Origin: Candidatus Woesebacteria bacterium
Lineage (GTDB): Bacteria > Patescibacteriota > Microgenomatia > UBA8517
DNA length: 64,000 nt
Direction: 5' to 3'
NCBI GenBank assembly: GCA_016700095.1
Contig: CP065002.1
Location: 932,145 to 996,144 of the forward strand
Part shown: positions 14,495 to 56,557 of the stretch, one piece after another
Layout of the letters: each line of letters begins with the position of its first letter
Position numbering within the stretch: the stretch's first letter is position 1
Translations under genes and position numbers: made by a program
The notes under the pieces: generated by a model
The model's input: the letters and a program-made list of their open reading frames with translations, nothing else
What the model was told of the DNA's origin: nothing
Database searches by the model: none

Positions 14495-14562
14495 AGAATA
14501 TGTACTTCGTAAAGAGATGCGTATTAATCGCTATTTAAGAAATTTTTTAAGTTAACATCACA

Positions 14563-15354: not shown

Positions 15355-15355
15355 G

Positions 15356-16285: not shown

Positions 16286-16292
16286 TGACTGT

Positions 16293-17192: not shown

Positions 17193-17246
17193 ACCTTATA
17201 TTATCACGGCTATGAAATAAGCCCAACCTGGTATATTCTAGTAGAC

Positions 17247-25638: not shown

Positions 25639-27219
25639 TCACTGTCGATTTTTCACTTCACTCACTTGAAATAAATATAGAGTATCATGCAGACCGTGTT
25701 GCACATATTCTCTCGTATTCATCGGTCTATCCGCTTTTATCCAACTTTGTACAAGTTCCAATCCAATATCTTCGGGATCTGATTTGAATCTCGAACTGTT
25801 CACAACCAGATATGTCTGATTTCCGGCTTGGAATGATTCAATTAATTGAATTGGCACCTCAAGAAAATTCAAACCTACACCAATCACAGTTATTTCAGGC
25901 AAATCATTAAGGTATACTTGCATCGCGTCGGGTAAGGTTCCGAAATAACCTTCTGTCCCAACAACGATTTTTTTGGATGGATCGGAATTATACTTGGCCC
26001 GTATTACATTTGACGCCTCTTTAATTCCACCCCCTGCCGTCCATTCTTCTAAATATCCGGATCGCTCACTTCTGGGAAGATTCACCTTTGACGGGTTGGT
26101 CACAATATAGTAATCACTTTTCAAGGAAATTAAGGTAAATATAAAAAGTCCAAAGAGTAGCACATCTCTCACTTTCAATTTCAGACCAGGTCGCTCGTTA
26201 CTTAGCAAAAAGGATGAAGAGGCAAGAACACAAACAAAAGGCAGAGTAAACAAGATATATCTTGCCGTTAGTGTTTTGGAAAGACCGGAAACGACAAATA
26301 TGGGAAACACTATCCAGACAAGAAGAAGTAATATTTGCTTGGGAAATTTCTTGTAGTTACCAAGTAGGGCAAATAGTGAAAAAATAACAATTAACCCCGG
26401 ACCAAGCATTGTATAGTATTCCAATGACCGATCAAGATACGGTTTCAAGGGATCAAGTGGAGAACTAATAATGTGAGAAAGTGGATAAACATAATCTTTG
26501 GTTCGAGAAACAAGCAAATTGAAATTCGGACCCAATCGCAATATGTTGTAAATCGCAAATCCCATAACGACAATCACCACCCACAAAAACGACATCTTTA
26601 GATAAAACACACCCCGTTTTTTATCTGGTAATTTATTTACCAAAACCGTAGTCGGTATTAACATGGCAAAAAAGGTCGCAGTAGATTTGGTAAGCAGTGC
26701 CCCTCCGAGCAAAAAACCGGTTATCATTGCCATATCCAATCTCAAATAGCGAATAGTTAGTATCGACAATACAACAATCCACACGCCAAACATGGAAAGT
26801 AGCGAATCAACCAGCGCCATGCGGTCAAAAAATACCGCGAAGGGTGAAAGTGAGTAGATATATGACGAAATTAATGCAACATATTTTGATTTAAATAAAA
26901 GATAACTTAATACAAAGACTGCCACAATCGTCGACACACCAGCCAGTCCAGATACTACTCTTCCGGCAATAAGTGGATCGGCAATAACTTTCATAAATGG
27001 AATTACAATCCACATAAATAGCGGTTGCTTACCATCCGACAGCGGCAAGAATCGCAAAGTCGGTTCCGCTCTCATTACCTGACTCCACCTTACATATATC
27101 GCTTCATCCGCAAAAATAGGTAGTGCATTTAGATTGTAAAATCTCAACAATGCCCCAGTAATAATAATCAAAAGTCCTACGAGTAGTGAATTCTTCCACT
27201 GAGCTATTAGTTTAGTCAT
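25639..27219 (-). CDS. ArnT-like GT-C glycosyltransferase (undecaprenyl-phosphate-sugar dependent).
   Basis: 526 aa. PIFADEAIYVRWSQVM and GKQPLFMW match the ArnT DE loop and the KPPL-like motif. The C-terminal domain (EEWTAGGGIKEASNVIRAKY) is paralogous to 1220..3004 and 3058..4797. Confidence 0.85.
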   Translation of the reverse strand: MTKLIAQWKNSLLVGLLIIITGALLRFYNLNALPIFADEAIYVRWSQVMRAEPTLRFLPLSDGKQPLFMWIVIPFMKVIADPLIAGRVVSGLAGVSTIVAVFVLSYLLFKSKYVALISSYIYSLSPFAVFFDRMALVDSLLSMFGVWIVVLSILTIRYLRLDMAMITGFLLGGALLTKSTATFFAMLIPTTVLVNKLPDKKRGVFYLKMSFLWVVIVVMGFAIYNILRLGPNFNLLVSRTKDYVYPLSHIISSPLDPLKPYLDRSLEYYTMLGPGLIVIFSLFALLGNYKKFPKQILLLLVWIVFPIFVVSGLSKTLTARYILFTLPFVCVLASSSFLLSNERPGLKLKVRDVLLFGLFIFTLISLKSDYYIVTNPSKVNLPRSERSGYLEEWTAGGGIKEASNVIRAKYNSDPSKKIVVGTEGYFGTLPDAMQVYLNDLPEITVIGVGLNFLEVPIQLIESFQAGNQTYLVVNSSRFKSDPEDIGLELVQSWIKADRPMNTREYVQHGLHDTLYLFQVSEVKNRQ

Positions 27220-28736: not shown

Positions 28737-30320
28737 TTACATAAATCGTTTGCGCCTTTGCACCGAAACACCACCAAATTTAACTTCTTCCTCAACACTT
28801 CCTATCCCCATTTGACGCACAAACCAGGCATCAAGCCGTTCCGGATGGGGAGGATCAACTTCGTACACCGTATACAATAACTCTATCTGTTCGTCGCTTG
28901 GTTTATACCCATATTTTTCCGGACCATACCATGTAAACAAATATGTATATGAGTAGGGAATTACGGGTGGCACATAAACATCTACACTAAAATCTCTACC
29001 TGCTGCATCTTGGTATAACCAATCGATTGCTTGTTTCTGATTACCATACATGACCGTTTGCGGACCATCTACACCGGCAATAATGTGATAACGCGTAACC
29101 ATACCGTTCCAAGATAAAAACACATAGAAAAAAACGAGAACAAATATTTTTCCGATTTTGAATTTCCATATCTGCCCCAGGACAATTCCAACCAACAGTA
29201 AAAATATTAAATAGTAACCGGTCAGATAATAATCATAAACATTTCCGGAATTACCCTGGAAAAACAAAAGTCCGATAATAGGAGATACAAGTAGTATTAG
29301 TATTATTTTAATACCATCGTTTTTTAACATCATCGGCAACCGGATAATAAAAGCTGCTGCAAGAACCATAAGTAGTACTTTCTCCCTTGGTCTGATCCAG
29401 TGAAATATTTTACTGGCAAACACATCGTAGTAAAAAGGTAGTCTGATCTGTAAAACATCCCAAAAGTTCTTCTTGAAACTTTCGTCATCGACAAAAAATT
29501 TCTTGATATTATTGCTTAGAATCTGATCGTGTATAAAATCAAATACGACCTGCGGAGCCAGTGTAAACAAAAATGCGGCTATAGCCAAAACAAGAGTTGT
29601 AAGATCGATTACCTTTGATAATTTCCATTTCGTTTTTGTTAACTGCCATAAAATAAAAATTGCGAATGCCGGAAAATAAAAGAACTCCCCTGCCGACCCA
29701 AAGTGGAATAACGACATTCCCGATACAAAAGAGAGTGTAATCCATGCCAATCGAAGTGTATTCGACCTATTTTTCAAACTGATATTTTTATTAATAACCC
29801 ACAACATCCAAACTACCACAACCGACAATAGCAACATGGGTGTCGGGTTAGACAACCAACGGGAAGCAACCATTATGTAAAAGGAGAATGATCCCAACAA
29901 AGCCGCAAACAGACCAGTTGCTCTATCTTGGATTTTTGCTCCTAAATAATATAAAAGTACAACCGCCAGAAGTGTAGTAAATGCCAAAAAGTATGCCGGC
30001 CCAAGAGGGTTCCCACCGCTTATTAAATAAAACGGTGCGATCAAGTAATAATAAAACGGACCCCTGAATATTCCGGCAATTCCTGTTGTCGGACCGATTA
30101 AGAAGAAATCTCCTTTGTGCCACAAATCCCAAATTATCAAAGCGTCACGCCCTTGATCGTAATAAAACCCTAGAATCTGGTCGGTTCGATAAGTTCTAAT
30201 AAACCATCCACCCAAAAGTATAACGGTAAGTAAAAAATAGGTAATTCTATGACTTCGTATTTCTGTCATAAGCTTACTGTAAATTTTTCTCATGTTTTTC
30301 CGTAACTTAGTAACCAACAT
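28737..30320 (-). CDS. GT-C-like membrane glycosyltransferase (DQxRD subfamily).
   Basis: 527 aa. Motifs GFYYDQGRDALII, LIGPTTGIAGIFRGPFY and ASRWLSNPT. C-terminal PYSYTYLFTWYGPEKYGYKP...VYEVDP. Confidence 0.7.
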   Translation of the reverse strand: MLVTKLRKNMRKIYSKLMTEIRSHRITYFLLTVILLGGWFIRTYRTDQILGFYYDQGRDALIIWDLWHKGDFFLIGPTTGIAGIFRGPFYYYLIAPFYLISGGNPLGPAYFLAFTTLLAVVLLYYLGAKIQDRATGLFAALLGSFSFYIMVASRWLSNPTPMLLLSVVVVWMLWVINKNISLKNRSNTLRLAWITLSFVSGMSLFHFGSAGEFFYFPAFAIFILWQLTKTKWKLSKVIDLTTLVLAIAAFLFTLAPQVVFDFIHDQILSNNIKKFFVDDESFKKNFWDVLQIRLPFYYDVFASKIFHWIRPREKVLLMVLAAAFIIRLPMMLKNDGIKIILILLVSPIIGLLFFQGNSGNVYDYYLTGYYLIFLLLVGIVLGQIWKFKIGKIFVLVFFYVFLSWNGMVTRYHIIAGVDGPQTVMYGNQKQAIDWLYQDAAGRDFSVDVYVPPVIPYSYTYLFTWYGPEKYGYKPSDEQIELLYTVYEVDPPHPERLDAWFVRQMGIGSVEEEVKFGGVSVQRRKRFM

Positions 30321-35391: not shown

Positions 35392-35592
35392 ATGAAAAAC
35401 GCTAACACTGAAAAAATAAAAGACCTTAAATCCAAGCTGAATCACTATGAATCTATATTAAAAGCCGAAATGAAAGGATATCGCGGAGTGGTTCATGAAT
35501 CTGCAGCAAGTGAAATAAAGCACACAAAAGTTATGGTTTATACAGCAATGGTAGATGGATTAAAAAAAGAAATACGGGATCTTGAAAATTAG
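35392..35592 (+). CDS. Small hypothetical protein (66 aa, coiled-coil-like).
   Basis: An ORF with no Shine-Dalgarno sequence, convergent with and overlapping the next gene by 4 nt. The only support is its open frame. Confidence 0.25.
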   Translation: MKNANTEKIKDLKSKLNHYESILKAEMKGYRGVVHESAASEIKHTKVMVYTAMVDGLKKEIRDLEN

Positions 35593-36800
35593 TTCGACTT
35601 CTTGCCTTTTAACTTCCAAGTTTTCCAAATAACGAGATTATACATCGTATAGTTAAATGCCATAACTAGCGGCATGGCGATAAGAATACCAATCTGTCGA
35701 ACGAAAGTCGTATCCGAGAAAGCTACAACCATGACACCAATTACTACAAATTGAATAACGACTGCACCAAACGACGTTAAATTAAATTGAATAAACTTCC
35801 ACACTGTTACTAATGGATTGGTTATTTTTTCTTCCTTAAATGTCCAAATGTTATTAAGAACAAAGTTGGAAATAATTGCCATCTCTGCAGCAAGTGCAGC
35901 CGCCCAAGCAGATGATTCCCCGATAAATGAAAACGAAGTACCCTTGAAAAAACTAAAGTTTTGAGCAAGTGCCATGGCTATCGATGTCCCGGTGTAGAGT
36001 TCAAGTGCAATTGCGTTAACAACATACCCAATAAATCCAACAACAGCAAATTTAACAAACCTTATCTTGTCTCTAATACCCAGAATAATAGCAACCTTAA
36101 AAGTCGCCACCATTTCCTTGGTATTAAATTTCGACTTATCAGTTATCCTCGGTCTAAATTCAAGCGGCACCTCGACGACTTTATCCGCATTTTTAATACA
36201 TTGATACATGAGATCAACTTTGTAGGCAAATCTCTCGAGTTCCATTAATCCATCCAGGTCGATTTTATTAAGAACTCCCTTAACTTTAGATAATCTAAAT
36301 CCGGTGGTTAAATCGTGGATTTCTTTTTTCAGTAGGACAATTCGAATAAACAAATTTCCAAAATAACTAACCATGCGCCTAAAAAGTGCCCATTCTTTCG
36401 GAACCGTACCTCCTTTTATATATCTTGATCCTATTACATAACTTGCACCGTTTATATAAGCCTCAACCATCGGTTTAACAAACTCGGGAGGATGTTGACC
36501 GTCTGCGTCCATTTCCAAAATAGCATCCGCATGTAATTTCTCCATCGCATACTTCATACCAACCACATATGCGTTTCCCAATCCTTTTTTATCACCCTGT
36601 TGTATTAGATGGAGATTTCCTCGTTTCTCACTTGCCTTTTCGACAATCTCAGTCATACCGTCTTTAGAATGATTATCGACTACAAGCAAATGCATTTCGG
36701 CGTTAATCTTTTGGAATTCTGTATCAAACAGAGTATCAATCATTTTTTTGATTCCCTCTGCCTCATTCCAAGCCGGCATAACAATAACTACTTTTTCCAT
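35589..36800 (-). CDS. GT2 polyprenyl-phosphate glycosyltransferase fused to a C-terminal GtrA-like membrane domain.
   Basis: 403 aa. The N-terminal half has VIVMPAWNEAEGI, LVVDNHSKDGMT and ILEMDADGQHPP. The C-terminal about 130 aa form four TM helices (FVKFAVVGFIGYVVNAIALELY...), typical of GtrA-family domains. Confidence 0.8.
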   Translation of the reverse strand: MEKVVIVMPAWNEAEGIKKMIDTLFDTEFQKINAEMHLLVVDNHSKDGMTEIVEKASEKRGNLHLIQQGDKKGLGNAYVVGMKYAMEKLHADAILEMDADGQHPPEFVKPMVEAYINGASYVIGSRYIKGGTVPKEWALFRRMVSYFGNLFIRIVLLKKEIHDLTTGFRLSKVKGVLNKIDLDGLMELERFAYKVDLMYQCIKNADKVVEVPLEFRPRITDKSKFNTKEMVATFKVAIILGIRDKIRFVKFAVVGFIGYVVNAIALELYTGTSIAMALAQNFSFFKGTSFSFIGESSAWAAALAAEMAIISNFVLNNIWTFKEEKITNPLVTVWKFIQFNLTSFGAVVIQFVVIGVMVVAFSDTTFVRQIGILIAMPLVMAFNYTMYNLVIWKTWKLKGKKSN

Positions 36801-45548: not shown

Positions 45549-46454
45549 TTAGTTTTCACCTAATCCTTGAAGAATCATGTCCTCTACAATCTGTTTCCAT
45601 GTTCTAAATTTCATCCCCAGCGCTTTTTGTGTTTCTTCCACCTTTAAACCACCATATTTGGGATATCGTACCGGACTGTCGGTTTTTAACAAAAATTCAT
45701 CAATCGAGGTTGTACTAAGGTTTACATCCTTGTTTCGCGTTTTTTTAAGTACATAAGTATACAATTCGTGCGGTGTGGTGCGATCAACAGAACATGCATG
45801 ATAAATTCCTTTGACAGACGCATCAATGAGGGCTGATATCACTTGACATGCCTCATCTATGTAAGTAATTGACACTATTTGATCGGTAAAAAGCGGATAA
45901 AGTTTTTTTTCGTCATAAAGCTGAATTGGTTTGCGAATGTAGTCAAGCTTACTTGCAAATTTTGCTCTAACCGGATAAGTTAATCTTAATATTGCCGAAC
46001 TAGCCGTGTATTCATTAACCACTTTTTCCGCCTCTAGTTTCGTATAACCATACCATGTAAGGTTTTTGGAAACTTCGTGTCTTGTGTCTTTTTCACCATA
46101 CGGACCCGGGGTCAAACTAGATCCCGGAAATATCATATCTGTCGAGATGTGAACGAAATGTCTTTTTTCTTTACCTGCCCAAACACTCAGAGTCTTGGTT
46201 GCGTCTACGTTTATTTTCCAACATAATCCTTGTCTATTGTCTCGTTGCAACTCGGCTTCACCTACATTTGTATAAGCAGCAAAATGGACAATCGCGTCTG
46301 GTTTGTTTGAATTTAAGTAATTTACAACCTCTTTACTTTTTGTCAGGTCGAGAGTGTCAATTTCGGGAGTTAACATTTGGTAATCATCTTTTTTTAACTC
46401 CACAAACCTCGAACCAATTAAGCCATGTGAACCGGTAACAAAAATTTTCTTCAT
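45549..46454 (-). CDS. rmlD: dTDP-4-dehydrorhamnose reductase (RmlD-like NAD(P)-dependent reductase).
   Basis: 301 aa. Motifs IFVTGSHGLIGSRF, AIVHFAAYTNVGEAE, HISTDMIF and PYGE. It overlaps rmlC by 4 nt (ATGA). Confidence 0.75.
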   Translation of the reverse strand: MKKIFVTGSHGLIGSRFVELKKDDYQMLTPEIDTLDLTKSKEVVNYLNSNKPDAIVHFAAYTNVGEAELQRDNRQGLCWKINVDATKTLSVWAGKEKRHFVHISTDMIFPGSSLTPGPYGEKDTRHEVSKNLTWYGYTKLEAEKVVNEYTASSAILRLTYPVRAKFASKLDYIRKPIQLYDEKKLYPLFTDQIVSITYIDEACQVISALIDASVKGIYHACSVDRTTPHELYTYVLKKTRNKDVNLSTTSIDEFLLKTDSPVRYPKYGGLKVEETQKALGMKFRTWKQIVEDMILQGLGEN

Positions 46455-47013
46455 GTGAATTTATTGGGAAATTGTTCACGCAATGTCGGATTGGCTCGGT
46501 CACGGTCGGATATAATGGGATTTTTGACAGGCCACGAAATATTAAGATCCGGATCATTCCACGCTATTCCACTCGCTTTACTGTTGTCCCAATACTCTTC
46601 GACCAGATACATATAATTTACCTCTTTGCTTCCAAGTGCACATATTGAATTTCCTATTCCGGGAGGCAATAACAAAGCCGACCGTACAGGGTTTTCTTTC
46701 GTGCAATCAAAAATAAAAGTTTCTACTTTCCCAAAATCCGGCGAGTCTTCCCGAACATCAGCAATCGCAACAAATGTTTTTCCCGTAAGGGGATAAACAA
46801 TTTTTTTCCAGTTTTCTGTATGAATCGCTCTGATAACCCGCGGTTTAGATACCGAGTGATTCCATTGAACCGCTTTGAATTTTACACCCATTTCTTCCAA
46901 CTCGCTTACTCTAAATACTTCATGAAAAAACCTCGTTCATCGTAATAAACAGGTTTCTCGATAATGAAAACTCCTTCAATACTCGTTTTTTTCACAGTGA
47001 TTGTGTTTTCCAT
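46451..47013 (-). CDS. rmlC: dTDP-4-dehydrorhamnose 3,5-epimerase (RmlC), interrupted by a 1-nt indel in a homopolymer.
   Basis: The first 35 codons (MENTITVKKTSIEGVFIIEKPVYYDERGFF...) start at 47013 and hit a stop after MKYLE. The remaining 149 aa (46451..46900) are in another frame. One extra T in the coding-strand T6 run (forward A6 at 46925..46930) restores DERGFFHEVFRVSELEEMGVKF..., a typical cupin-fold RmlC. Confidence 0.7.
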
Positions 47014-47016
47014 ATT

Positions 47017-48021
47017 TTACTTCTGTTTAGTTTTAGAATACATTTTTTCCGATTTCAGTTTAAGCGGTCGCCACCACCATTCATTATCTTTGTACCACTT
47101 AATCGTTTCTATTAGCCATTTTTCAAAATCATGTTGAGGCCTCCAACCGAGATTTTTAATTTTTGTCCAATTAACCGCGTATCTTCTATCATGTCCACTT
47201 CTATCAGCAACAAATCTAATTTTTGAGTGATCGAAACCAAATGCCTCCAACAATAGATTGGTAACCTTAAGGTTATTTATATCATGTGTTAAACCACCAA
47301 CTAAATAAGTTTCCCCCACTTTTCCCTTATTAATAACCAGGTCAATCGCACTACAATGATCTTCGACATACAACCAATCTCTTACATTCTTTCCGTCCCC
47401 ATAAATCGGTACATCTTTCGAATCAATTAGATTTGTGATAAATCTGGGAAGCAACTTCTCGGGATCTTGAAAAGGACCGTAATTATTGGAAGTATTAGTG
47501 ATAGTTATATTCAAACCATACGTAGTGTGATATGCCCGAACAAGATGGTCGGATGCTGCTTTACTCGCCGAATATGGACTGTTTGGCTTGTAACATGATT
47601 TCTCACTAAATTTTTCTACACCACTTAACGGTAGAGCACCATACACTTCATCTGTAGACACATGGTGAAATCGTTTAACGCCGCGTTTTACCGCTTCATC
47701 CAATAAAACTTGAGTACCTATGACATTTGTTTTTATAAACACTTTTGGTCCAATTATCGAACGGTCGACGTGACTTTCTGCAGCAAAATGAACTACGACA
47801 TCGACATCCTTCATTGCATGAGACACTGTCGTAGGCGAGCAGATATCGCCCTTAATAAAAGTATAGTTAGAATTACCCCCAAAATCTTTCGTCGATGTCA
47901 AATGACCGGCATATGTTAATTTGTCTAAATTTACTATTTGATCCTTTGGATATTTTTTTAGCCAGTAACGGATAAAGTTACTGCCGATAAATCCCGCTCC
48001 TCCTGTTACAAGCAATCTCAT
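47017..48021 (-). CDS. rmlB: dTDP-glucose 4,6-dehydratase (RmlB).
   Basis: 334 aa. Motifs MRLLVTGGAGFIGSNF, YxxxK (YSASKAASD), HFAAESHVDRS and VSTDEVYG. Confidence 0.9.
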   Translation of the reverse strand: MRLLVTGGAGFIGSNFIRYWLKKYPKDQIVNLDKLTYAGHLTSTKDFGGNSNYTFIKGDICSPTTVSHAMKDVDVVVHFAAESHVDRSIIGPKVFIKTNVIGTQVLLDEAVKRGVKRFHHVSTDEVYGALPLSGVEKFSEKSCYKPNSPYSASKAASDHLVRAYHTTYGLNITITNTSNNYGPFQDPEKLLPRFITNLIDSKDVPIYGDGKNVRDWLYVEDHCSAIDLVINKGKVGETYLVGGLTHDINNLKVTNLLLEAFGFDHSKIRFVADRSGHDRRYAVNWTKIKNLGWRPQHDFEKWLIETIKWYKDNEWWWRPLKLKSEKMYSKTKQK

Positions 48022-48267
48022 AGGTTGTTCATAAAATGATAATTAATTAATAGTGCTTTACTTTGAAAGCAAGCTTTTAAATCCCGCTCCTGACGTTACA
48101 AGCAATTTCATAGGTTGTTCATAAAATGATAATTAATTAATAGTGCTTTACTTTGAAAGCAAGCTTATAAATCCCGCCCCTGACGTTACAAGCAATCTCA
48201 TAGGTTGTTCATAAAATGATAATTAATTAATAGTGCTTTACTTTGAAAGCAAGCTTATAAATCCCGC
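47989..48267. repeat. Tandem direct repeat, 3.1 copies of a 90 bp unit spanning the rmlB start codon and its 5' region.
   Basis: The unit aaatcccgc(t/c)cc(tcc/tga)(t/c)gttacaagcaat(c/t)tcataggttgttcataaaatgataattaattaatagtgctttactttgaaagcaagctt(t/a)ta occurs at 47989-48078, 48079-48168 and 48169-48258, with a partial copy at 48259-48267. Copy 1 carries the real rmlB ATG (48021..48019). Copies 2 and 3 carry decoy ATGs encoding MKLLVTSGAGFKSLLSK-like 17-aa peptides. Confidence 0.9.
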
Positions 48268-48302
48268 ACTTTTAATTATAATTAAGTTTTATTGCCGAAA
48301 TA

Positions 48303-49382
48303 TTAAACTCTTACTTTGGATTTTTCTCCAATGAACAATTTTATCCAATGAGTGGGATCTTCCAAATCATAAACTTCGGCTTCGTTGCCAATCATACTTT
48401 CGTTAATTGGTTGTTTGACGTTTATTATTCTTACATTTTCCATCAATACACTATCTTCTAAATGACTTTTTTCAATTACACATCCACTGCTAATAGATGA
48501 ATATGGACCAATATACGAATCACTTATTTCAACATTGTCGCTTATTGACACAGGGCCTTTTATTTCTGAATTTCTAATTTTACAGTTTTTTCCCACACTC
48601 ACTCTACCGATTATTTTCGTACTCCTGTCGATTTTTGACCCCATATCATCTACCAGGTATTCATCTAACAAATATCTATTGGATTCTATCCAGTCATTAA
48701 ATTTACCAGGGTCTAACCACTTTCCTTTATACTCAATTACATCGACCCGATATTTATTGTCAATTAACCATTGGAAAACTGATGGTATTTCATATTCTCC
48801 ACGCGCTGATGGTACTATCTTGTTTTTTCCCGTGAAGCATTTGAAAACATTATGGTCACCAAAATATAATCCGGGGACAGCAAAGTCGTGTGGGGAATTC
48901 TTTGGTTTTTCCACATATTTTATAAGTCTGTTTGTTTTCGAGAAATAAGGGACACCAAGACGGGAGTTTTCAGGATGATGTACCATAGTCACCATGCCAT
49001 TTGGCTTGTTTTTCCGAAAGTAGTCAGTAACTTCTTTAATACCTTTTGTAAAAATATTATCGCCTAAATGGTATACGAAACTATCACCATTCAATTTCTC
49101 TTCACATACTTGGACAACGTTTGCCAGTCCAATTGGTTTTTCTTGTAATACGTAGGTAAATTTCGCTCCCCACTTACTTCCATCACCTAAATACGACTTC
49201 ACCACATCTAGCCAACCGGGGTTATAGGTAATTAATATATCTTTTATGTCTGCTTCGACAACAGATTCAATTGGATAGAAAATCAATGGTTTATTGGCTA
49301 CTGGAATAAAATGTTTATTGGTAGAAAAAGTCAGAGGTTGCATTCGCGTTCCTCGTCCTCCTGTAGGTATTATTGCTTTCAT
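48303..49382 (-). CDS. rmlA: Sugar-1-phosphate nucleotidyltransferase, long form with a C-terminal left-handed beta-helix (glucose-1-phosphate thymidylyltransferase-like).
   Basis: 359 aa. The N-terminus KAIIPTGGRGTRMQPLTFSTNKHFIPVANKPLIFY matches the GxGxR nucleotidyltransferase signature. The C-terminal hexapeptide-repeat region is (VSIGKNCKIRNSEIKGPVSISDNVEI). It heads the rml gene run. Sugar and nucleotide specificity is not provable from sequence. Confidence 0.75.
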   Translation of the reverse strand: MKAIIPTGGRGTRMQPLTFSTNKHFIPVANKPLIFYPIESVVEADIKDILITYNPGWLDVVKSYLGDGSKWGAKFTYVLQEKPIGLANVVQVCEEKLNGDSFVYHLGDNIFTKGIKEVTDYFRKNKPNGMVTMVHHPENSRLGVPYFSKTNRLIKYVEKPKNSPHDFAVPGLYFGDHNVFKCFTGKNKIVPSARGEYEIPSVFQWLIDNKYRVDVIEYKGKWLDPGKFNDWIESNRYLLDEYLVDDMGSKIDRSTKIIGRVSVGKNCKIRNSEIKGPVSISDNVEISDSYIGPYSSISSGCVIEKSHLEDSVLMENVRIINVKQPINESMIGNEAEVYDLEDPTHWIKLFIGEKSKVRV

Positions 49383-49632
49383 ATAGTCATACTAATCCAA
49401 TGTCGCTTACAACTTACCTTCTATTAAGTATAAATTTAATAGCTACTAAACTCCATAAAGTATTCTATAGGTATTTGTAATATAACAAATATCATTATAC
49501 ACACTCAATGCAATCATCCTCCAATCATCTCAAGTCAAGTAAATGTAGTTTCTGCAACCCTTGGTGAACAGTTAACGTATCCTATAATTAATATGTGTTG
49601 TGATATAATATTCACACAATTTTTACATTACG

Positions 49633-50463
49633 ATGACTAAAAAAAATATCGGTATTCGCCCCACCATGTTACTGTGGTGTGTGCCCCCACTTGTGGCAAT
49701 TATTTTATTGATCGGTTTTTTACTAAATTCTGGAAGTGGTATGAAATTTCCTCGTGAAATTGTACTTTCCGAGACAACCGCAAATTTTGAGGATTTTCCT
49801 AAGATTAAATTAACGGGTCATGGAGCAATTACATTTTGGTTCGATGATGCATGGAAATCGCAATACGATGTTGCATTTGACATACTTGACGAGCGACATA
49901 TTAACGCAGCGCTTGCCGTACCAACAAAATTGGTCGGATTTGACGCTTATATGGATTGGGATCAAGTAATTAAATTGCGCGAGAAGGGGTGGGAAATTAC
50001 TTCTCACAGTAGATCTCACGACTGTAGTACCGACAACTTGGACTTCAATTCATTGAATGAGGAGATTGAAGGATCGAAAAAAGATCTCGAAGCCCATGGT
50101 ATTCGTACAAATATCTATCTTCCTCCATGTGGTATTACATCTAAAATATCAAATAGTTTGGTTTTGTATCACTACGAGTATCAGAGATTAATCGAGGCGG
50201 GATTTAACGACATTCCCGTTGAAGATCCCTTTGGAATAAAAATCCAAGAAGTCGGTAGACACACTACGGTAAGTGATGTCGAAAAATGGATTAGGGTTGC
50301 TCAAAAAGACAACAAGTGGTTGATATTAATGTTCCATCAGATCGATAACGACGATACAAGATACGGTATAGATCCAGTCACATACAGAAGCATAGTTGAT
50401 CTGGTTGATAATTCCAATATTCAAATAGTGCTACCTACCCAGATACTTGAAAAATCCATATGA
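49633..50463 (+). CDS. Polysaccharide deacetylase (NodB-homology / CE4 domain), membrane-anchored.
   Basis: 276 aa. An N-terminal TM helix. CE4 motifs ITFWFDDAW, HSRSHD and LPPCG. Confidence 0.8.
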   Translation: MTKKNIGIRPTMLLWCVPPLVAIILLIGFLLNSGSGMKFPREIVLSETTANFEDFPKIKLTGHGAITFWFDDAWKSQYDVAFDILDERHINAALAVPTKLVGFDAYMDWDQVIKLREKGWEITSHSRSHDCSTDNLDFNSLNEEIEGSKKDLEAHGIRTNIYLPPCGITSKISNSLVLYHYEYQRLIEAGFNDIPVEDPFGIKIQEVGRHTTVSDVEKWIRVAQKDNKWLILMFHQIDNDDTRYGIDPVTYRSIVDLVDNSNIQIVLPTQILEKSI

Positions 50464-51536
50464 CCAAACGACAAGTATGTATTGTTATTGCTGCCTACAA
50501 CGAAGAAAGGGTTATCGGGAAAACTCTCAGAAGATTGTCAAAGATAATACCTGCAACCGATATTTATGTGGTTGACGATGGAAGCGTAGATAAAACCGCT
50601 CAAATAGCAAGAAAATATACACCCAATGTTCTTACAAAAGCTAACAGTGGTAAAGGCAGTTCATTGCAATACGGAATAAAGAATTTTCGGCTTTGTCAGA
50701 AATATAAATATATTACCCCAAACGACGCCGACTCAATCTTACATCCAAAGTTTTTTGACAAAATTATTGAAACTTTTGAGATGGATAAGGATAGAAAAAT
50801 AGCCGGTATCGCAGGAAAAGTAGTTGGTAGCAATATAAATTGGTTAACCGCCTATCGACTCTGGGAATATGAAATAACGCAATTAATACACAAATCTGCA
50901 CAGTCTATAACTAACTCAATAACCGTATGTCCTGGACCATGCAGTGTTTTCCGATCAAGCATCTTTTACAAAATTAATTACCCCAAGGGTACAATCACCG
51001 AAGATATGGATCTAACATTTTACATTCATAGAAAAAAACTTGGTACGATTGTTTATGAACCGCAATCACTCGCTTACACTCAAGATCCCAAGAATTTAAA
51101 AAGTTACATACAACAAATAAACCGTTGGTACACAGGTTTTTGGCAATGTGTAATCAAACACAACATCCCCACAGGAAGACAACTATTGGATCTGGAAGTA
51201 TCTTTGCTGTGCATGGAGGGGATATTTAGCGGACTGTTTGTTTTATCATCGCCTTTACTTGTATTTCTGTTTATTGGACATCATAATTATTTATTTCTGT
51301 ACGCTATTATTACCGATTTTCTTCTTTTTGTTCTACCCTCTACTTTATATGTGGCAAGTAAATTCGCATCCCCAAAAATACTTCTCTATATTCCGCATTT
51401 TTATTTCTTAAGAGCAGTTAGTAGCTTGATATTTATCAGAAATTATGGGATAGTATTCTTGGGTAGAGATAGAAAACTTAGTGCGAGTTGGGATACTGCT
51501 CGTTATTCATTTCAGAAATTCAGTTCAATTCATTAA
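50460..51536 (+). CDS. Processive GT2 beta-glycosyltransferase (NodC/IcaA/PgaC/chitin-synthase-like) with C-terminal TM helices.
   Basis: 358 aa. Motifs VCIVIAAYNEERVI, VVDDGSVDKT, TEDMDLT and the Q-x-x-R-W motif (QQINRWYTGFWQ), followed by four TM helices. The start overlaps the deacetylase stop (ATGA). Confidence 0.8.
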   Translation: MTKRQVCIVIAAYNEERVIGKTLRRLSKIIPATDIYVVDDGSVDKTAQIARKYTPNVLTKANSGKGSSLQYGIKNFRLCQKYKYITPNDADSILHPKFFDKIIETFEMDKDRKIAGIAGKVVGSNINWLTAYRLWEYEITQLIHKSAQSITNSITVCPGPCSVFRSSIFYKINYPKGTITEDMDLTFYIHRKKLGTIVYEPQSLAYTQDPKNLKSYIQQINRWYTGFWQCVIKHNIPTGRQLLDLEVSLLCMEGIFSGLFVLSSPLLVFLFIGHHNYLFLYAIITDFLLFVLPSTLYVASKFASPKILLYIPHFYFLRAVSSLIFIRNYGIVFLGRDRKLSASWDTARYSFQKFSSIH

Positions 51537-51794
51537 ATTAGCTTATGTCACTACCAATACGAACATTCACAGGAGTAACTTTAATTTATCACCTTATTAT
51601 AGTTATTTTGTACAAAACCTACAAAGAGGGTGTAAGTATTGTCAGAAAAATTAAAATCTCTATTTAACTAAATTACTAAAAGCACACATACTCCGTTTAT
51701 ATTAAACACCAAACTATACCTTTATGTATTAACTAATATATTTCCCAAGGGGAAATTAAACTCATAATTGGTAGGGTAATAGATGTAAGAAAGT

Positions 51795-52067
51795 TTAAAA
51801 TCTAAAAAGAACCGACAGAACTATCATCAGTCCAAGAGTTGCTATCGCCAAATATTCAACAAGAATTGAAACATCTAAGTCTTGGTGTAAGTAATGATGT
51901 ATAACTCCCCATACAAAATAAGAAAATGCTACCGCTACCGCCAGTGATGCCTGAAACATTCTATCGTAAGAAAAATGAATAATCCCAAGGGAACCTGACA
52001 AAATAATACCAACAAGGGGTATGTAATGATTCACGTGTCTTGAAACAATCTTGATTTTACTCATCAT
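51795..52067 (-). CDS. Small integral membrane protein (hypothetical).
   Basis: 90 aa with three hydrophobic helices, located directly downstream of the CAP-domain gene on the same strand. Confidence 0.4.
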   Translation of the reverse strand: MMSKIKIVSRHVNHYIPLVGIILSGSLGIIHFSYDRMFQASLAVAVAFSYFVWGVIHHYLHQDLDVSILVEYLAIATLGLMIVLSVLFRF

Positions 52068-52075
52068 TAGTTAGC

Positions 52076-53002
52076 TTAAAGAATCTTACCGGCTTTAACA
52101 ATAAGGACAATTACAAATATCATTCCCAAAAAGGTCAAATGTGCAATCAGTCTACCGCTTTTTCTGGGAACTTTTTTGTGCAATACAATAGCACTATCAA
52201 CGACCATCACAACTAACAGTAGTCCGAGAATAGTAAGTGAAATAGTTTTTGTTGCAGAAAATGGTGAAATTTCATAGGATGAAGACTTGCTGTTCATTGC
52301 GGTTTTTCCGTTTTGAATATCTCCTACAACAACCGGCTTCTCCTTACTTACAGTTGGTGTCACCGGTTGCGTCGTTGGCGTGACTACTGTTTCATCTACG
52401 GTATAAGCCGCGGCCACAGGAACACTTGTCTTGTCTTTGGCACTCCTGGTTCCAAAAAATTGGACAACAATAGTTGTATCTACACCATCAATATCACCCT
52501 CAACAACACCTATTCCAATTTCTTCGTACTTTGACGAAAGTAAATTTTCCCGATGTGAAGGCGATGCCATCCAGGCTTCAACCGCTGCTGTCGGGTTTGA
52601 GAAATCACGCGCCAAATTCTCGCCCGCATATCGATACACATAGCCCTCGTCTATGAAAAATTTCCATGGTTGCGTACCATCCGGCGAAACATGCGCCCAA
52701 TAGTTTTTCGCCAACATATCTTGCCCCTTGAGATACGCAGCTTTATTTAGTACCTGACTAACTTCTAAGTTACCCACACCATTTTCCCTTCTTTTTTGGT
52801 TTGTAAGATTTACTACTTCATCTATTGAAATATTCGCAGCATAACCAAGGACTTTAACACCCTGCCTTGGAATAATTGTCAAAGCCAGCTGGGATAAGAG
52901 TACGCAAAAACCTATAAGAAAGAGGGTTGAAGAGTGTAGCAATTTAGCCTTGTGATTATTTGAATGCCTGGGAATTATCAAATGCGACAAATATGTAAAC
53001 AT
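52076..53002 (-). CDS. CAP/SCP (YkwD-like) domain protein with a Thr/Pro-rich linker and a C-terminal TM anchor.
   Basis: 308 aa. An N-terminal TM/signal segment. CAP motifs NQKRRENGVGNLEVSQVLNKAAYLKGQDMLAKNYWAHVSPDG and SPSHRENLL. The linker is VTPTTQPVTPTVSKEKP, and two C-terminal hydrophobic helices follow. Confidence 0.7.
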   Translation of the reverse strand: MFTYLSHLIIPRHSNNHKAKLLHSSTLFLIGFCVLLSQLALTIIPRQGVKVLGYAANISIDEVVNLTNQKRRENGVGNLEVSQVLNKAAYLKGQDMLAKNYWAHVSPDGTQPWKFFIDEGYVYRYAGENLARDFSNPTAAVEAWMASPSHRENLLSSKYEEIGIGVVEGDIDGVDTTIVVQFFGTRSAKDKTSVPVAAAYTVDETVVTPTTQPVTPTVSKEKPVVVGDIQNGKTAMNSKSSSYEISPFSATKTISLTILGLLLVVMVVDSAIVLHKKVPRKSGRLIAHLTFLGMIFVIVLIVKAGKIL

Positions 53003-53234
53003 ATATACATATTAGCTTTATAACCAAAGGTAATCAATATTTACTACATATAGTTTTAACTAGATTGCAGGGTGTTTATACACCAAATGTATCCAGTTTG
53101 CATTGATATAATTCGATTACTACTAGCACAGCAACGGTAACGTTCTAGCCACGAAATGTGTTATAATATCCTGTAGTATTTTAAGCGTTTGTTTTAGGAA
53201 TATATTTTGTACCACAAAGTGCGTCAAGTTTTTC

Positions 53235-54989
53235 ATGCAAATTCATATGGCTAATAATTATTTGAAATATATCAACAATTCCCGGAGATATCGTGTTGCG
53301 GGAATACTTTATATTGTTACAACCGTTGTATATCTTTTTTGGCTTAATGGTCATCTTAACTACCAGGATTGGTGGCTAAGTTTGCCTTTCTTTTTTGCTC
53401 AAGCGTATACAGCTATGCTTGTGACGTTGTCCGTTATAAACAACTGGAAAGCAAAATATGAAACCGTTAGACCCACACTGCCAACCAATTTACCATGTGT
53501 AGCAATCGTCGTACCTGTTTACGAAGAGCCTATCGACATCATACAACGTACTCTCAAATCTTTACTACATATATCATACGACAAGGACTTGGTAATCATT
53601 GTTAGTAAGGGATATAACGGCAATTTCAAAGAAACTGCCTATACCCAAAAGCTTATAGATATGGTCAATACTGTTTGCAGTGATCACGCTAATATTTCAA
53701 CAAAATCCGCTAAACATCAAAGAAAAAATATACATCTACTATTTTCCAATCAACAAAATAATGCAAAGGCGGGAAATCTCAATGCTACGCTAGATTTCTT
53801 GGCTAAAGAATATCCATGGATTGATCATGTATTAACACAGGATGCTGACGAAATAGCATATTGCGACTTACTAAAAGCCACGATGGGATATTTCAACGAT
53901 CCCAAAATTGCATATGTTCAAACAATTAAACAAGCAGATGTCAATAAACACGATCCTTTCGGCAACCATGATCTGATGTGGTACTGTCGTACGGCAGCAA
54001 GTAGAAATGCCGATAATGCAATGTTTGCTTGTGGGTCAGGAGTAGTGTGGAAGATTAGCGCCCTTCGCTCAATTGGTGGCTTTGCTACATGGAATTTAGT
54101 TGAGGATCTTACTACCTCATATAACTTACTTGCCGCGGGCTGGAAATCTTCCTACCATTACGAAGCATTGTCTAAAGGCATCGCACCGGAAGATTTACCT
54201 AATTTTATTAAACAAAGAAGTACTTGGGCACTTGACAACATGAGGCTATTCTTTTGGGATAATCCATTATTCAAAAAAGGGTTAACTTTGAGGCAAAAAC
54301 TTCATTTTATTGAAACACCGTTATTTTATCTAAACGGATATGCAGGTATCGCATTTGTACTTACAGTCTCAGCGAGTTTATATTTTCGTGTTTGGCCAAC
54401 TACCTCCAGTGCCTTAACACACGCTTTATTTATCTTTCCTTCATTTATAACCATGGAGATATATTTTTTATTGTTAGCAGACACAATTCCGTTTAGAAGA
54501 ATTAGACAGTTTTGGGTTGGTCTTGCCCCCGTTTTTATTATCACATCATTACAAGCTTTGTTGTACGGTCCCAAGAAAAAACCTACTTACCAAGTAACCA
54601 GAAAAATAAATAAAGTTGGTAACTATTTACATATGGTGTTGCCGCAATTAGTGTTACTTGTATTAATTGTAGTCGCTCTTCTAAAAAATATATTGGGCAC
54701 TCCCTTGTATTCCGGTTTTGATTGGGCTGCGCTTTTTTGGGGTTTTTATCTGGCTTCTTTTTATCTACAAATTATTCGAGTGTCGATGTGGAATTGGATA
54801 CCCGACATAAGTATCGAGGCTATAACAATTGGTGGTTTGCCTAATTGGTTTCCAAATTTTGACAAGCTGAAAAACATATTTGGATCTACTCCATTGATTA
54901 ATCGTAGTCACGGATTCAACACACCAGACAACACTCACCATGTACCTTACACGAAAAGTACTGATTATCACTCAAATAGTAACAAGTAA
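53235..54989 (+). CDS. Cellulose-synthase-like processive GT2 (CesA/BcsA-like catalytic subunit, no PilZ domain).
   Basis: 584 aa. Two N-terminal TM helices. Motifs VAIVVPVYEEP, QDADE, FACGSGVVW, VEDLTTSY and QRSTWALDN (a QxxRW-like motif), followed by six C-terminal TM helices. Confidence 0.75.
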   Translation: MQIHMANNYLKYINNSRRYRVAGILYIVTTVVYLFWLNGHLNYQDWWLSLPFFFAQAYTAMLVTLSVINNWKAKYETVRPTLPTNLPCVAIVVPVYEEPIDIIQRTLKSLLHISYDKDLVIIVSKGYNGNFKETAYTQKLIDMVNTVCSDHANISTKSAKHQRKNIHLLFSNQQNNAKAGNLNATLDFLAKEYPWIDHVLTQDADEIAYCDLLKATMGYFNDPKIAYVQTIKQADVNKHDPFGNHDLMWYCRTAASRNADNAMFACGSGVVWKISALRSIGGFATWNLVEDLTTSYNLLAAGWKSSYHYEALSKGIAPEDLPNFIKQRSTWALDNMRLFFWDNPLFKKGLTLRQKLHFIETPLFYLNGYAGIAFVLTVSASLYFRVWPTTSSALTHALFIFPSFITMEIYFLLLADTIPFRRIRQFWVGLAPVFIITSLQALLYGPKKKPTYQVTRKINKVGNYLHMVLPQLVLLVLIVVALLKNILGTPLYSGFDWAALFWGFYLASFYLQIIRVSMWNWIPDISIEAITIGGLPNWFPNFDKLKNIFGSTPLINRSHGFNTPDNTHHVPYTKSTDYHSNSNK

Positions 54990-54991
54990 CC

Positions 54992-56557
54992 ATGGAACTG
55001 TCATTTAACAAAGTAAAATTTCGCATCACTAAACTTAAGATTGCTTACCTAAGCTTAATATCCGTATTCTTGCTTTATTTGATTAAAGATATGCAGTTTA
55101 ATACGGCATTTGTCGACGAAGCAATATATGCAACTATCGGTGAAGAGGTACTTAGAAAAATATACTGGGAGAATGCAATTTCATGGATGGGTGGATCTTA
55201 TCTCTATCCAGTTATTAGCGGGTTTATTAATCGGTATTATGGACTGGAAGGAATAAGAATGTTCTCAGCATTATGCGTATTAACTGCGGGTGTTTTGTCC
55301 GCTAAATTAGCTCGACTGCTTGGCGGAAAATATAGTTCTCTTGCGGCGCTTATCTTTTTTTTATTTTCTTCACTTTCTCTAAACTTGGGACAACTTGGAA
55401 CTTACGACACACCTAGTCTTATGTGCATGTCGATTTCATTTTATTGCGTAATTACCTCCAGATATCACATTGGTAAACGTAAGTTTTTACTACTTATCTT
55501 ATCATCCTTCTTTATGACACTTGCTGTTCTTAGCAAGTATGTAGCAATTTTATTTGTACCCACAATTATTTTAGCTATTATTCCGACTGTAAAAAATACA
55601 ACAGAGTTTATAAAACATATTCCCAAACTTACTGTATATATTTTGTGTTGGTCTCTTCCATTTACAGCACTAGTGGGTTGGTATGTATTTGTCAACTACT
55701 CACAAGTAATTAATTTTTTTGAAGGCGATTTCTTTTCTGAGCCTTCAAACTTACTAACCATATTTACAACGCTAATACAATCAACTAACTTCATAATCAT
55801 TGGAGCAACCACTTCCCTAGTATATGCTTTGCTTAAAGTTAAGGGGGAGAAAAAATGGTTAGTTATAGTATTGTTTATCGGAGGACTCGCTCCAATCTTA
55901 TATCACCTATCTTCGATGAATATTAGATCTTTTCCAAAACATCTCGTTTTTACTTTATTCTATTGGGTGCCATTAACAGGGTGGATATTAAACAAAATTT
56001 ATACCAAATTAACTCAAGTTTCCAATAGTTTTACTTTTATTAATAATTCTTATCAACTGATTTGGACAACTTTATTTATTCTTATTATCACCAACACATG
56101 GTTAAGTTTTGCCAAACACTGGCAATTCCAAAGATCATGGCCAAGCAGTACTGCAACATTAGAATACTTGAGAGAGCATAGGAAAAATGATGATAAAATA
56201 TTTGCCGAAGCTGCAGCCATTTATAAATTTCATATGTTTGAAGGTTTTGAAGATCCATCCGCGTGGCCTTCCACTTGGCATTTAGAATACAAAGGCAAAT
56301 TTGGCGTAGACGCAATGAAGATGGCTATCAGTGAAAAAGCATTCGACTACATAATATTAAATGATTATTTTACCAGTGAAATTAACCGCGAAATTAAACC
56401 TGTTATTAATGAATATTATGAAGTAGTAGCTTTCGACGATTACAAGCTTAGCGGTGTACACACCATAACAACGCTTGTTTGGCAACCGAAAGATGATACT
56501 AACATACTGGTCCTGAGTGAAAATAACGACTGGTTTTCATATTTTTCCAAACCTTAG
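54992..56557 (+). CDS. GT-C membrane glycosyltransferase (ArnT/PMT-like, DE motif).
   Basis: 521 aa. The N-terminal loop is AFVDEAIYATIGEE. About 12 TM helices and a C-terminal soluble domain. It starts 3 nt after the cellulose-synthase-like gene. Confidence 0.65.
   Translation: MELSFNKVKFRITKLKIAYLSLISVFLLYLIKDMQFNTAFVDEAIYATIGEEVLRKIYWENAISWMGGSYLYPVISGFINRYYGLEGIRMFSALCVLTAGVLSAKLARLLGGKYSSLAALIFFLFSSLSLNLGQLGTYDTPSLMCMSISFYCVITSRYHIGKRKFLLLILSSFFMTLAVLSKYVAILFVPTIILAIIPTVKNTTEFIKHIPKLTVYILCWSLPFTALVGWYVFVNYSQVINFFEGDFFSEPSNLLTIFTTLIQSTNFIIIGATTSLVYALLKVKGEKKWLVIVLFIGGLAPILYHLSSMNIRSFPKHLVFTLFYWVPLTGWILNKIYTKLTQVSNSFTFINNSYQLIWTTLFILIITNTWLSFAKHWQFQRSWPSSTATLEYLREHRKNDDKIFAEAAAIYKFHMFEGFEDPSAWPSTWHLEYKGKFGVDAMKMAISEKAFDYIILNDYFTSEINREIKPVINEYYEVVAFDDYKLSGVHTITTLVWQPKDDTNILVLSENNDWFSYFSKP

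Follow-up and report, generated by a model that had tools for sequence, protein, structure and literature searches.

A compact CE4 deacetylase–GT2 synthase gene pair with a conserved micro-ORF in Candidatus Woesebacteria, a candidate minimal system for a GlcNAc-based exopolysaccharide

The stretch of DNA analyzed here (the window) comprises 64,000 nt of contig CP065002.1 from Candidatus Woesebacteria; coordinates given without a locus name are window positions. It contains a gene for a polysaccharide deacetylase of carbohydrate esterase family 4 (CE4), which overlaps the gene for a short, synthase-type glycosyltransferase of family 2 (GT2) and is followed, after the latter, by a conserved 40-codon open reading frame (micro-ORF). 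We consider it reasonably probable that these three genes constitute a minimal synthase-dependent exopolysaccharide system of the poly-N-acetylglucosamine (PNAG)/chitin type. Judged from the sequences, the most likely product would be a partly de-N-acetylated polymer of N-acetylglucosamine (GlcNAc). The features concerned are as follows.

49633–50463, forward strand: CE4 polysaccharide deacetylase, 276 amino acids (aa); based on the ORF, Pfam PF01522, and a model with the CE4 fold.
50460–50463, forward strand: ATGA start/stop overlap of the CE4 and GT2 genes, read from the sequence.
50460–51536, forward strand: synthase-type GT2, 358 aa; based on the ORF, Pfam, profiles, and the predicted fold.
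51545–51667, forward strand: conserved micro-ORF, 40 aa, MSLPIRTFTGVTLIYHLIIVILYKTYKEGVSIVRKIKISI; based on the ORF, conservation, a profile, and the codon pattern.

The original prediction for this locus concerned the CE4–GT2 pair and described a membrane-anchored deacetylase that is translationally coupled to a processive β-glycan synthase. The ORF list contains both genes at the positions and lengths that had been claimed (276 and 358 aa), and the motifs that had been quoted (TFWFDDAW, HSRSHD, TED, and QxxRW) all occur in the translations. The ATGA overlap is likewise present: the junction reads ...tccatATGAccaaac..., with the ATG of the GT2 gene (50460–50462) overlapping the TGA of the CE4 gene (50461–50463). 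That prediction had not noticed the micro-ORF, the two further partners described below (a GT-C glycosyltransferase and a GH18 hydrolase), or the conservation of the module across the Candidate Phyla Radiation (CPR).

Related loci were collected in a scan of one genome per species, which yielded 24 loci from Woesebacteria, Gottesmanbacteria, Daviesbacteria, Shapirobacteria, WWE3, Parcubacteria, and Saccharimonadales. Adding the closest relative with long flanking DNA (L025; 55% identity) and the window itself gave 26 loci. GT2 and CE4 are encoded separately in all 26, and a CE4 orthologue lies directly upstream of GT2 in all 24 loci with upstream DNA (22 scan loci, L025, and the window). The frequency of this pairing greatly exceeds what chance would produce. 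The 4-nt overlap recurs in 10 of 23 orthologous ORF pairs, and the spacing, whether overlap or gap, is at most 20 nt in 21 of the 23. Several of the loci L003, L005, L008, L011, L022, and L024 are labeled as uncultured Gammaproteobacteria and one as a Candidatus Bathyarchaeia archaeon (394-kb contig); these odd labels are probably due to mis-binning or mislabeling, or else to horizontal transfer.

The GT2 carries the motifs DDGS (residues 39–42), DAD (89–91), TED (180–182), and Q-I-N-R-W (219–223). In Pfam, it matches Glyco_tranf_2_3 (89.8 bits), Glycos_transf_2 (71.7 bits), and Glyco_trans_2_3 (48.4 bits), all above the curated cut-offs, and is borderline for Chitin_synth_2 (27.5 bits for a cut-off of 27). 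The family comprises 479 homologues at E < 1e-5, and the best 120 of these, nearly all from CPR/Patescibacteria, were aligned. In this alignment, E181, D182, Q219, and W223 are invariant, and conservation reaches at least 90% at D40, D89-A90-D91, T180, and R222. Among 18 curated NCBIfam families, PgaC_IcaA (TIGR03937) scores highest, with 97.6 bits (E = 7.6e-28) and an alignment of residues 4–333 with profile positions 45–375 of 407; the CelA profile yields 31.5 bits, and polyprenyl-phosphate transferase families match the N-terminal ~100 residues only. Pairwise identities amount to 25% with Escherichia coli PgaC (residues 6–226 versus 77–299, E = 6e-17) and 27% with staphylococcal IcaA (E = 1e-12). 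An hhalign comparison with E. coli PgaC gave a probability of 99.3% over columns 6–240 versus 72–307, and the GT2 motifs align with ITEDID and QRLRW in PgaC. The motif of the GT2 (TED-M-D) has the TED-x-D form of PgaC and BcsA rather than the EDR form of NodC, chitin synthases (Chs), and hyaluronan synthases (HAS).

A profile of the 120 sequences was searched against the sequences in the PDB. It matches E. coli BcsA over positions 6–307 (E = 4.4e-15) and Chlorella virus HAS over positions 20–319 (E = 5e-13), whereas dolichol-phosphate mannose synthase (DPMS; E = 9e-6), GtrB (3e-5), and ArnC (2e-3 to 5e-3) match positions ~4–113 only. The AlphaFold model based on the same alignment (pLDDT 92.2, pTM 0.89) tells a similar story in a Foldseek search of the PDB, where ranks 1–37 are all HAS, chitin synthases, or BcsA (E = 9e-15 to 1e-9). 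The order is Chlorella virus HAS (E = 9e-15, TMq 0.70–0.76), Xenopus HAS1, Candida Chs2, BcsA, yeast Chs1, and Phytophthora Chs1, and the first GT2 that is not a synthase appears at rank 38. In both fold and profile, the likeness reaches past the GT-A domain: the interfacial helices and the first transmembrane (TM) pair also align with these HAS, fungal and oomycete chitin synthases, and BcsA. Hence, profiles and the predicted fold support placing the GT2 with the membrane-integrated processive synthases, away from Dpm1/GtrB/ArnC types, as the original prediction had proposed. The clustering with Dpm1-like enzymes that it had named as a refutation was not found, since the long profile matches are BcsA and HAS, the best 37 Foldseek matches are HAS, Chs, and BcsA, and the DPMS, GtrB, and ArnC matches are confined to the N-terminal ~110 residues. 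By its sequence, the GT2 lies outside the PgaC/IcaA and NodC equivalog families, and the locus is a CPR-specific minimal variant of synthase-plus-deacetylase systems.

The GT2 had been noted as unusually short, which is true not only of this protein: the best 120 homologues are 346–395 aa long, so shortness is a trait of the whole family. The ORF already starts at the first start codon past a stop and cannot be extended upstream, which means that its length is no annotation artefact. None of the 120 homologues has a hydrophobic N-terminus, and the N-terminal TM helices of the PgaC type are missing. The first ~75 residues of E. coli PgaC, which form two TM helices, have no counterpart in the GT2.

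The model comprises a GT-A domain, two interfacial helices (residues 128–150 and 213–233, the second bearing QxxRW), and three long C-terminal helices (242–274, 278–301, and 305–333), the first two of which are strongly hydrophobic and the third less so. The loop after the second TM helix and the C-terminal tail are basic; in the tail, W344 and R348 are invariant, and Y349 is at least 90% conserved. The most likely topology, as far as the model goes, consists of two TM helices, a third helix that is interfacial or weakly embedded in the membrane, and a cytoplasmic tail. HAS, Chs, and BcsA have six to eight membrane helices, whereas the GT2 has two or three and ends shortly past the third. Set against the structures of BcsA, HAS, and chitin synthase, the GT2 would amount to the catalytic core, ending in the region of the gating loop and missing both the helices at the N-terminus and the final TM pair; the conserved C-terminal W-x-x-x-R-Y may match the WGT(R/K) gating loop of HAS and chitin synthase.

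The CE4 protein matches Pfam Polysacc_deac_1 (PF01522) with 43.2 bits (cut-off, 23.1) and carries TFWFDDAW at residues 67–74 and HSRSHD at residues 125–130. Loss of the catalytic Asp and His residues had been named as a finding that would refute the prediction; in 16–24 CE4 orthologues, however, D71, D72, H125, H129, and H235, together with P165-C166-G167 and R185, either do not vary or show conservation of at least 90%. The AlphaFold model (pLDDT 87) has a helix at residues 10–34 followed by the CE4 barrel, in agreement with the membrane anchor that had been predicted. Its Foldseek matches are CE4 enzymes of a generic range that includes acetylxylan esterases, chitin and chito-oligosaccharide deacetylases, PplD, IcaB (rank 10), PgdA, PgaB (rank 18), and, further down, ArnD (rank 45). 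The fold search does not discriminate between ArnD-like and PgaB/IcaB-like enzymes. The N-terminus preceding the TM helix (MTKKNIGIR) is basic, so the protein is predicted to be oriented N-in/C-out with its catalytic domain outside. Within the helix, W15 is invariant in a 24-sequence alignment, and P19 is at least 90% conserved. A helix that served as an anchor and nothing more would not usually be conserved in this way, which suggests that it makes a specific intramembrane contact.

A spacer of 8 nt separates the micro-ORF from the GT2 stop codon, so that its first base lies 9 nt beyond the final base of the stop. The encoded peptide consists of one short hydrophobic helix, in which a His is nearly invariant, and a basic tail. 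Each of the 25 other loci has an orthologous ORF of 30–50 aa directly behind the GT2 stop or in slight overlap with it (26 of 26 with the window). The first 25 residues align without gaps and show the pattern M-x-x-x-P-x-x-x-(G/N/S)-(G/S/N)-h-(S/T)-L-(I/V)-(F/I/Y)-H-L-h-(V/I) ahead of the basic tail, the His being present in 24 of 25 sequences. When the 1,804 stop-to-stop frames of the window are searched with a profile built without the window sequence, this frame alone is significant (E = 1.6e-10); the next best has E = 0.071. In the other loci, it matches only the position after GT2, including that in L022, which was outside the training set (E = 5.5e-5). Pairwise divergence at codon positions 1, 2, and 3 is 0.59, 0.38, and 0.67, compared with 0.72–0.75 in a control stretch, a pattern indicative of a gene that is translated. 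Sequence conservation thus establishes it as a real gene that is overlooked by most gene callers: few copies are annotated, as hypothetical proteins, and the copy in L025 was not called.

No Pfam family matches the micro-protein, and a weak hit to DltX (E = 0.036, in one of 25 members) was judged to be due to chance. A HMMER scan of 1.84 billion cluster representatives gave 27 matches, all free-standing and 36–94 aa long, with none fused to a longer synthase. The only fusion seen is in L006 (6736–7929; Saccharimonadales), where the micro-protein is joined to the N-terminus of the GH18 protein, ahead of the GH18 TM anchor, giving 397 aa instead of ~350; from this arrangement, an N-out/C-in orientation is predicted for the micro-protein. 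L006 also has a second CE4 gene upstream of its GT-C gene. By analogy, we propose that the micro-protein is a small membrane subunit of the synthase. Its gene occupies the position after GT2 that pgaD holds after pgaC.

Clustering of the ORFs in these loci gives the module order GT-C (PMT_2), CE4, GT2, micro-ORF, GH18. GT-C lies directly upstream of CE4 in 21 of the 22 scan loci with upstream DNA, and the GT-C proteins keep a (N/S/V)DEA(I/V)Y motif after the first TM helix; a GT-C profile found no relatives in the PDB. The neighbor in 23 of the 26 loci is a gene, on either strand, for a ~350-aa protein that Pfam assigns to GH18 (E = 1e-21 to 1e-29). The GH18 proteins have an N-terminal anchor, and the catalytic Glu of the DxDxE motif is kept in 23 of 23 copies, the motif reading D-V-N-F-E in L018. 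Their closest relatives are the YdhD/YaaH/SleL subgroup (E = 1e-55 to 1e-47), with chitinases next. Searches of the published literature found no relevant description of this module in CPR.

In the window, the gene order is rearranged, and the following two genes lie downstream of the micro-ORF.

53235–54989, forward strand: second synthase-type GT2, cellulose-synthase-like, 584 aa; NCBIfam CelA, 174 bits over residues 24–487, and Pfam Glyco_tranf_2_3.
54992–56557, forward strand: PMT_2-type GT-C membrane glycosyltransferase, 521 aa; Pfam PMT_2, 43.4 bits, and the module GT-C profile.

A profile of 21 module GT-Cs built without the window protein matches the latter over its full length with 174.6 bits (next paralogue, 32.6), and the protein keeps a VDEAIY motif after the first TM helix. 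Its sequence indicates that it is probably the displaced counterpart of the canonical module GT-C; it may or may not belong to the same functional unit as the CE4–GT2 pair. The 584-aa GT2, which bears an NAKAGNLN motif and ends 2 nt ahead of the GT-C gene, probably belongs to a separate polymer system with a β-glucan-type look. A synthase-type GT2 beside a GT-C is thus found in three arrangements: the canonical module, the 584-aa GT2 with its GT-C in the window, and L025. In L025, a 427-aa GT2 (13331–14614) is followed by an 882-aa PMT_2 GT-C fused to GH8 (14618–17266), and this fusion is not orthologous to the window GT-C.

The combination of these genes resembles known systems for PNAG synthesis. 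E. coli PgaB–PgaC–PgaD and staphylococcal IcaA–IcaD–IcaB share with it a GT2 with DxD, TED, and QxxRW and a CE4 acting outside the membrane, and the E. coli order pgaB, pgaC, pgaD, with a pgaB/pgaC overlap, corresponds to the order CE4, GT2, small membrane protein seen here. The micro-protein (30–50 aa, one helix) is smaller than PgaD (137 aa) and IcaD (101 aa), and is likened to them by its position. PgaD and IcaD, both small membrane proteins but not homologous to each other, are needed for their synthases to be fully active (PMC7112194). PgaB joins a CE4 domain to a TIM-barrel hydrolase of GH18/GH20-like structure (PMC5933820). The hydrolase of the CPR module is a true GH18 with a gene of its own, not a GH153. 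The E. coli system further includes the porin PgaA, which has no equivalent here, whereas the GT-C is an added partner of the CPR module.

Fusions of the same domains provide a second line of comparison. In Streptomyces, MatB is a CE4–TM–GT2 fusion that is required, together with MatA, for production of PNAG, which was identified by antibody and by sensitivity to dispersin B (PMC5972031). CE4–GT fusions also figure in the literature as divergent pga loci, a listing that is not backed by experiment (PMC7112194). The closest relatives of the CPR GT2 and GH18 proteins in a plasmid collection are domains of two large proteins, encoded at the following loci.

L026, 2730–6083: 1,117-aa fusion protein, Bacillus mycoides.
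L027, 2727–6119 and 6182–8632: 1,130-aa fusion protein and the gene after it, Sulfitobacter.

According to Pfam, the B. mycoides protein has the architecture TM–GH18–CE4–TM–GT2. Pfam detects CE4 and GT2 only in the Sulfitobacter protein, the N-terminal region of which is weakly like the CPR GH18 in BLASTP; the gene after this fusion encodes an 816-aa DUF3131 protein. The GT2 domain of the fusions is 36% identical to the window GT2 and gives a full-length alignment with one CPR orthologue. Identity between the CPR and fusion GH18s is 26–29% (E up to 8e-37). A TM helix directly precedes the GT2 domain in the fusions, whereas the CPR GT2 has no such helix; the idea that the micro-protein is a homologue of that helix was dropped, as there were no matches even at E = 1000. 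Although MatB and the fusions are single polypeptides and the CPR proteins are encoded by separate genes, the order of the catalytic units, CE4 then GT2, is alike. The CPR module is the same toolkit as that of the fusions, MatB, and Pga, split into separate genes. Literature searches found no published characterization of the B. mycoides or Sulfitobacter fusions. A Streptomyces match (H29) that was followed as a possible MatAB turned out to be an unrelated short GT2 of 362 aa beside a subtilase (Streptomyces sp. BHT-5-2; L028, 5992–7080), with 32% identity over residues 6–237 and no CE4 neighbor.

In the mechanism that we propose, the GT2 would polymerize UDP-GlcNAc on the cytoplasmic face of the membrane by means of DxD, TED (the catalytic base), and QxxRW (acceptor binding), and the growing chain would cross the membrane. 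The CE4, held by its single TM anchor, would then remove part of the N-acetyl groups outside, the outcome being a cationic, adhesive polymer of GlcNAc and glucosamine (GlcN) on the cell surface. The micro-protein, predicted to be N-out/C-in, may complete the membrane part of the GT2 together with the conserved TM helix of CE4; PgaD and IcaD have the matching role for PgaC and IcaA. In most relatives, the membrane-anchored GH18 would trim the polymer, and the GT-C would act on or beside it.

The presence of CE4 and GH18 partners points to an N-acetylhexosamine chain. The substrate-assisted mechanism of GH18 enzymes needs a 2-acetamido group, and, to our knowledge, all known GH18 activities cleave β-1,4 bonds, after GlcNAc. 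Synthesis and partial deacetylation of a GlcNAc polymer, as had been predicted from the gene pair, gains support from the intact GH18 neighbor, the GH18–CE4–GT2 fusions, and the MatB precedent, in line with the family and fold assignments. Gene structure, motifs, fold class, and module conservation were read directly from the data; from these, we infer the sugar, processivity, export, complex formation, and a biological role as a surface coat or in attachment.

Several observations weigh against this interpretation. The function assigned to the CPR proteins is inferred from sequence, predicted structure, and gene context. The GT2 scores far below the equivalog cut-off of PgaC_IcaA (97.6 versus 422.3 bits), and also fails that of NodC (TIGR04242; 44.7 versus 550 bits, with residues 6–225 only). 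Clues to the linkage conflict, in that the GT2 is nearest to β-1,6 PNAG synthases whereas the GH18 partner argues for β-1,4, and we give the two linkages roughly equal odds. Structure prediction had been suggested as a way of looking for a membrane channel; the modeled GT2 monomer has only two or three membrane helices and does not provide an own channel of the BcsA/HAS/Chs type, which takes six or more. With only two clear TM helices and a less hydrophobic third, the GT2 is probably unable to form a channel alone, so that export is assumed in our reading. The CE4 motif 3, usually R-x-P-Y, reads x-x-P-C-G at residues 163–167 and lacks the Arg, for which the conserved R185 might be a substitute. 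The CPR CE4 belongs to an HfsH/DUF2334-like subgroup that differs from the CE4 of the fusions; BLASTP gives no match between the two, and they are not orthologous. For the window in particular, there is no GH18 nearby, as is also the case in L025, and neither tblastn nor a profile search found a GH18 anywhere in the 64 kb (best E = 0.03 and 1.1). Finally, the window GT-C lies 3.4 kb downstream of the CE4–GT2 pair, behind the CelA-like GT2.

Patescibacteria are a large, mostly uncultured group that live attached to other cells, and the composition of their surfaces is little known. A five-gene module found across CPR lineages is a testable candidate for a surface adhesin or coat made of a partly deacetylated GlcNAc polymer. 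If this is true, a synthase of 350 aa with two or three membrane helices, paired with a protein of 40 aa, would offer a very small system in which to study the coupling of polymerization to export by processive synthases, and the module also raises the question of what a GT-C does beside an enzyme of this kind. A bolder version, which we regard as doubtful, is that the module represents the smallest known processive synthase, split into multiple subunits: a core of ~350 aa with two or three membrane helices, the translocation path of which would be completed by the micro-protein and the TM anchors of CE4 and GH18, possibly docked on a GT-C, and which would make a lineage-wide, cationic, chitosan- or PNAG-like coat for attachment of the episymbionts to their hosts.

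Of the other explanations, the one that fares best, although we think it unlikely, is that the polymer is not made of GlcNAc (but is, for example, a β-glucan or mixed glycan) and that CE4 (PgdA-type) and GH18 (an N-acetylglucosaminidase of the SleL/YdhD type) act on peptidoglycan and are co-located as envelope genes. The nearness of the GH18s to a spore-cortex-lytic subgroup fits this idea, as do the many peptidoglycan deacetylases among the fold matches of CE4, and the donor specificity of the GT2 cannot be read from its sequence. Mere co-location agrees poorly, however, with the CE4/GT2 overlap and the invariant adjacency of the two genes across very divergent CPR lineages, or with the joining of all three domains in one polypeptide in other bacteria. 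As to a β-glucan, the GT2 scores three times higher with PgaC/IcaA than with CelA, whereas the neighboring 584-aa GT2 does score as CelA-like. This explanation and the amino-glycolipid route discussed below are less well supported than synthesis of a GlcNAc polymer.

We find it quite unlikely that the genes serve a lipid-carrier route in which polyprenyl-phosphate-GlcNAc, formed by the GT2, is deacetylated by the CE4 and then used by the GT-C as the donor of GlcN for an acceptor on the surface. Such a triad would parallel ArnC/ArnD/ArnT and LgmA/LgmC/LgmB of Bordetella; GT-C, CE4, and GT2 are kept in order in 21 loci, the DE motif of the GT-C is retained, and ArnD, at Foldseek rank 45, also has a CE4 fold. 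Against this stand the invariant TED base and conserved QxxRW of the GT2, its full-length alignment with processive synthases, and the restriction of the ArnC, GtrB, and DPMS matches to its first ~110 residues. Moreover, the predicted location of the CE4 domain outside the membrane differs from that of ArnD, the GH18 partner would have no role, and both the window and L025 keep CE4, GT2, and micro-ORF without an adjacent GT-C. The window also encodes a dedicated DPMS-like GT2 fused to a GtrA domain (35589–36800), so the GT-Cs need no donor supply from the 358-aa GT2.

A third alternative, in our view very unlikely, is amino-glycolipid synthesis, with the GT2 placing GlcNAc on a lipid or glycolipid of the membrane and CE4 deacetylating it outside, as with HexS/HexD of Clostridioides difficile, which make the lipid HNHDRG. 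An enzyme with two or three TM helices would need no channel for this, and enzymes of the QxxRW type in GT2/GT21 include lipid glycosyltransferases. Pfam Glyco_transf_21, however, does not match the 358-aa GT2, and the conserved, endo-type GH18 hydrolase and the GH18–CE4–GT2 fusions point to a glycan chain. The glycosyltransferase and polysaccharide deacetylase of HexSDF do make an aminohexosyl glycolipid (PMC10128005), but HexS is annotated as a monogalactosyldiacylglycerol (MGDG)-synthase-type enzyme, not as a synthase-type GT2 (PMC10128005).

The original prediction had likened the pair to NodB/NodC as well as to IcaB/IcaA and PgaB/PgaC, and the likeness to PgaC/IcaA stands. NodC and NodB likewise combine a GT2 and a CE4 that act on GlcNAc chains, but NodB is a soluble, cytoplasmic enzyme, and a cytoplasmic pathway of this type does not fit an anchored CE4 with its domain outside. 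That short chito-oligosaccharides, cytoplasmic or secreted as signals, are the product is hardly credible: the motif set is common to NodC, which gives a weak match, and a short GT2 with few TM helices might not translocate a polymer, but the TM anchor of CE4 is conserved, the GH18 partner is also anchored outside, no equivalents of NodA, NodI, or NodJ were seen, and the NodC score is half that of PgaC/IcaA.

The remaining observations concern the surroundings of the pair. An Rfam scan of the window gave no family matches, and a scan for promoters and terminators in 49300–53300 found fewer promoter-like sites than in shuffled sequences and was uninformative. We ascribe a cluster of 85–107-aa ORFs antisense to GT2 to the conservation of GT2 itself. 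Positions 1–37600 form a dense envelope-glycosylation island, which holds several GT2s, a GT1/GT4 enzyme (13457–14494), and a Wzx-like flippase (21317–22819). Six ORFs in the window match Pfam PMT_2 (3058–4797, 4836–6308, 17247–19571, 25639–27219, 28737–30320, and 54992–56557), and there is a six-member family of 490–547-aa paralogues, two of which are also PMT_2 matches.

Divergent from the CE4 gene lies a dTDP-rhamnose operon, rmlD-rmlC-rmlB-rmlA (45549–49382, reverse strand), whose RmlA (359 aa) has a C-terminal left-handed β-helix extension; rml genes also flank the module in L010 and L025. Beyond the micro-ORF, on the reverse strand, a 90-aa ORF (51795–52067) that matches the C-terminal third of DUF5656 only adjoins a gene for a CAP-domain protein with a C-terminal TM segment (52076–53002). 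A DUF5656-like/CAP-domain pair is also found near the module in L010, L024, and L025.

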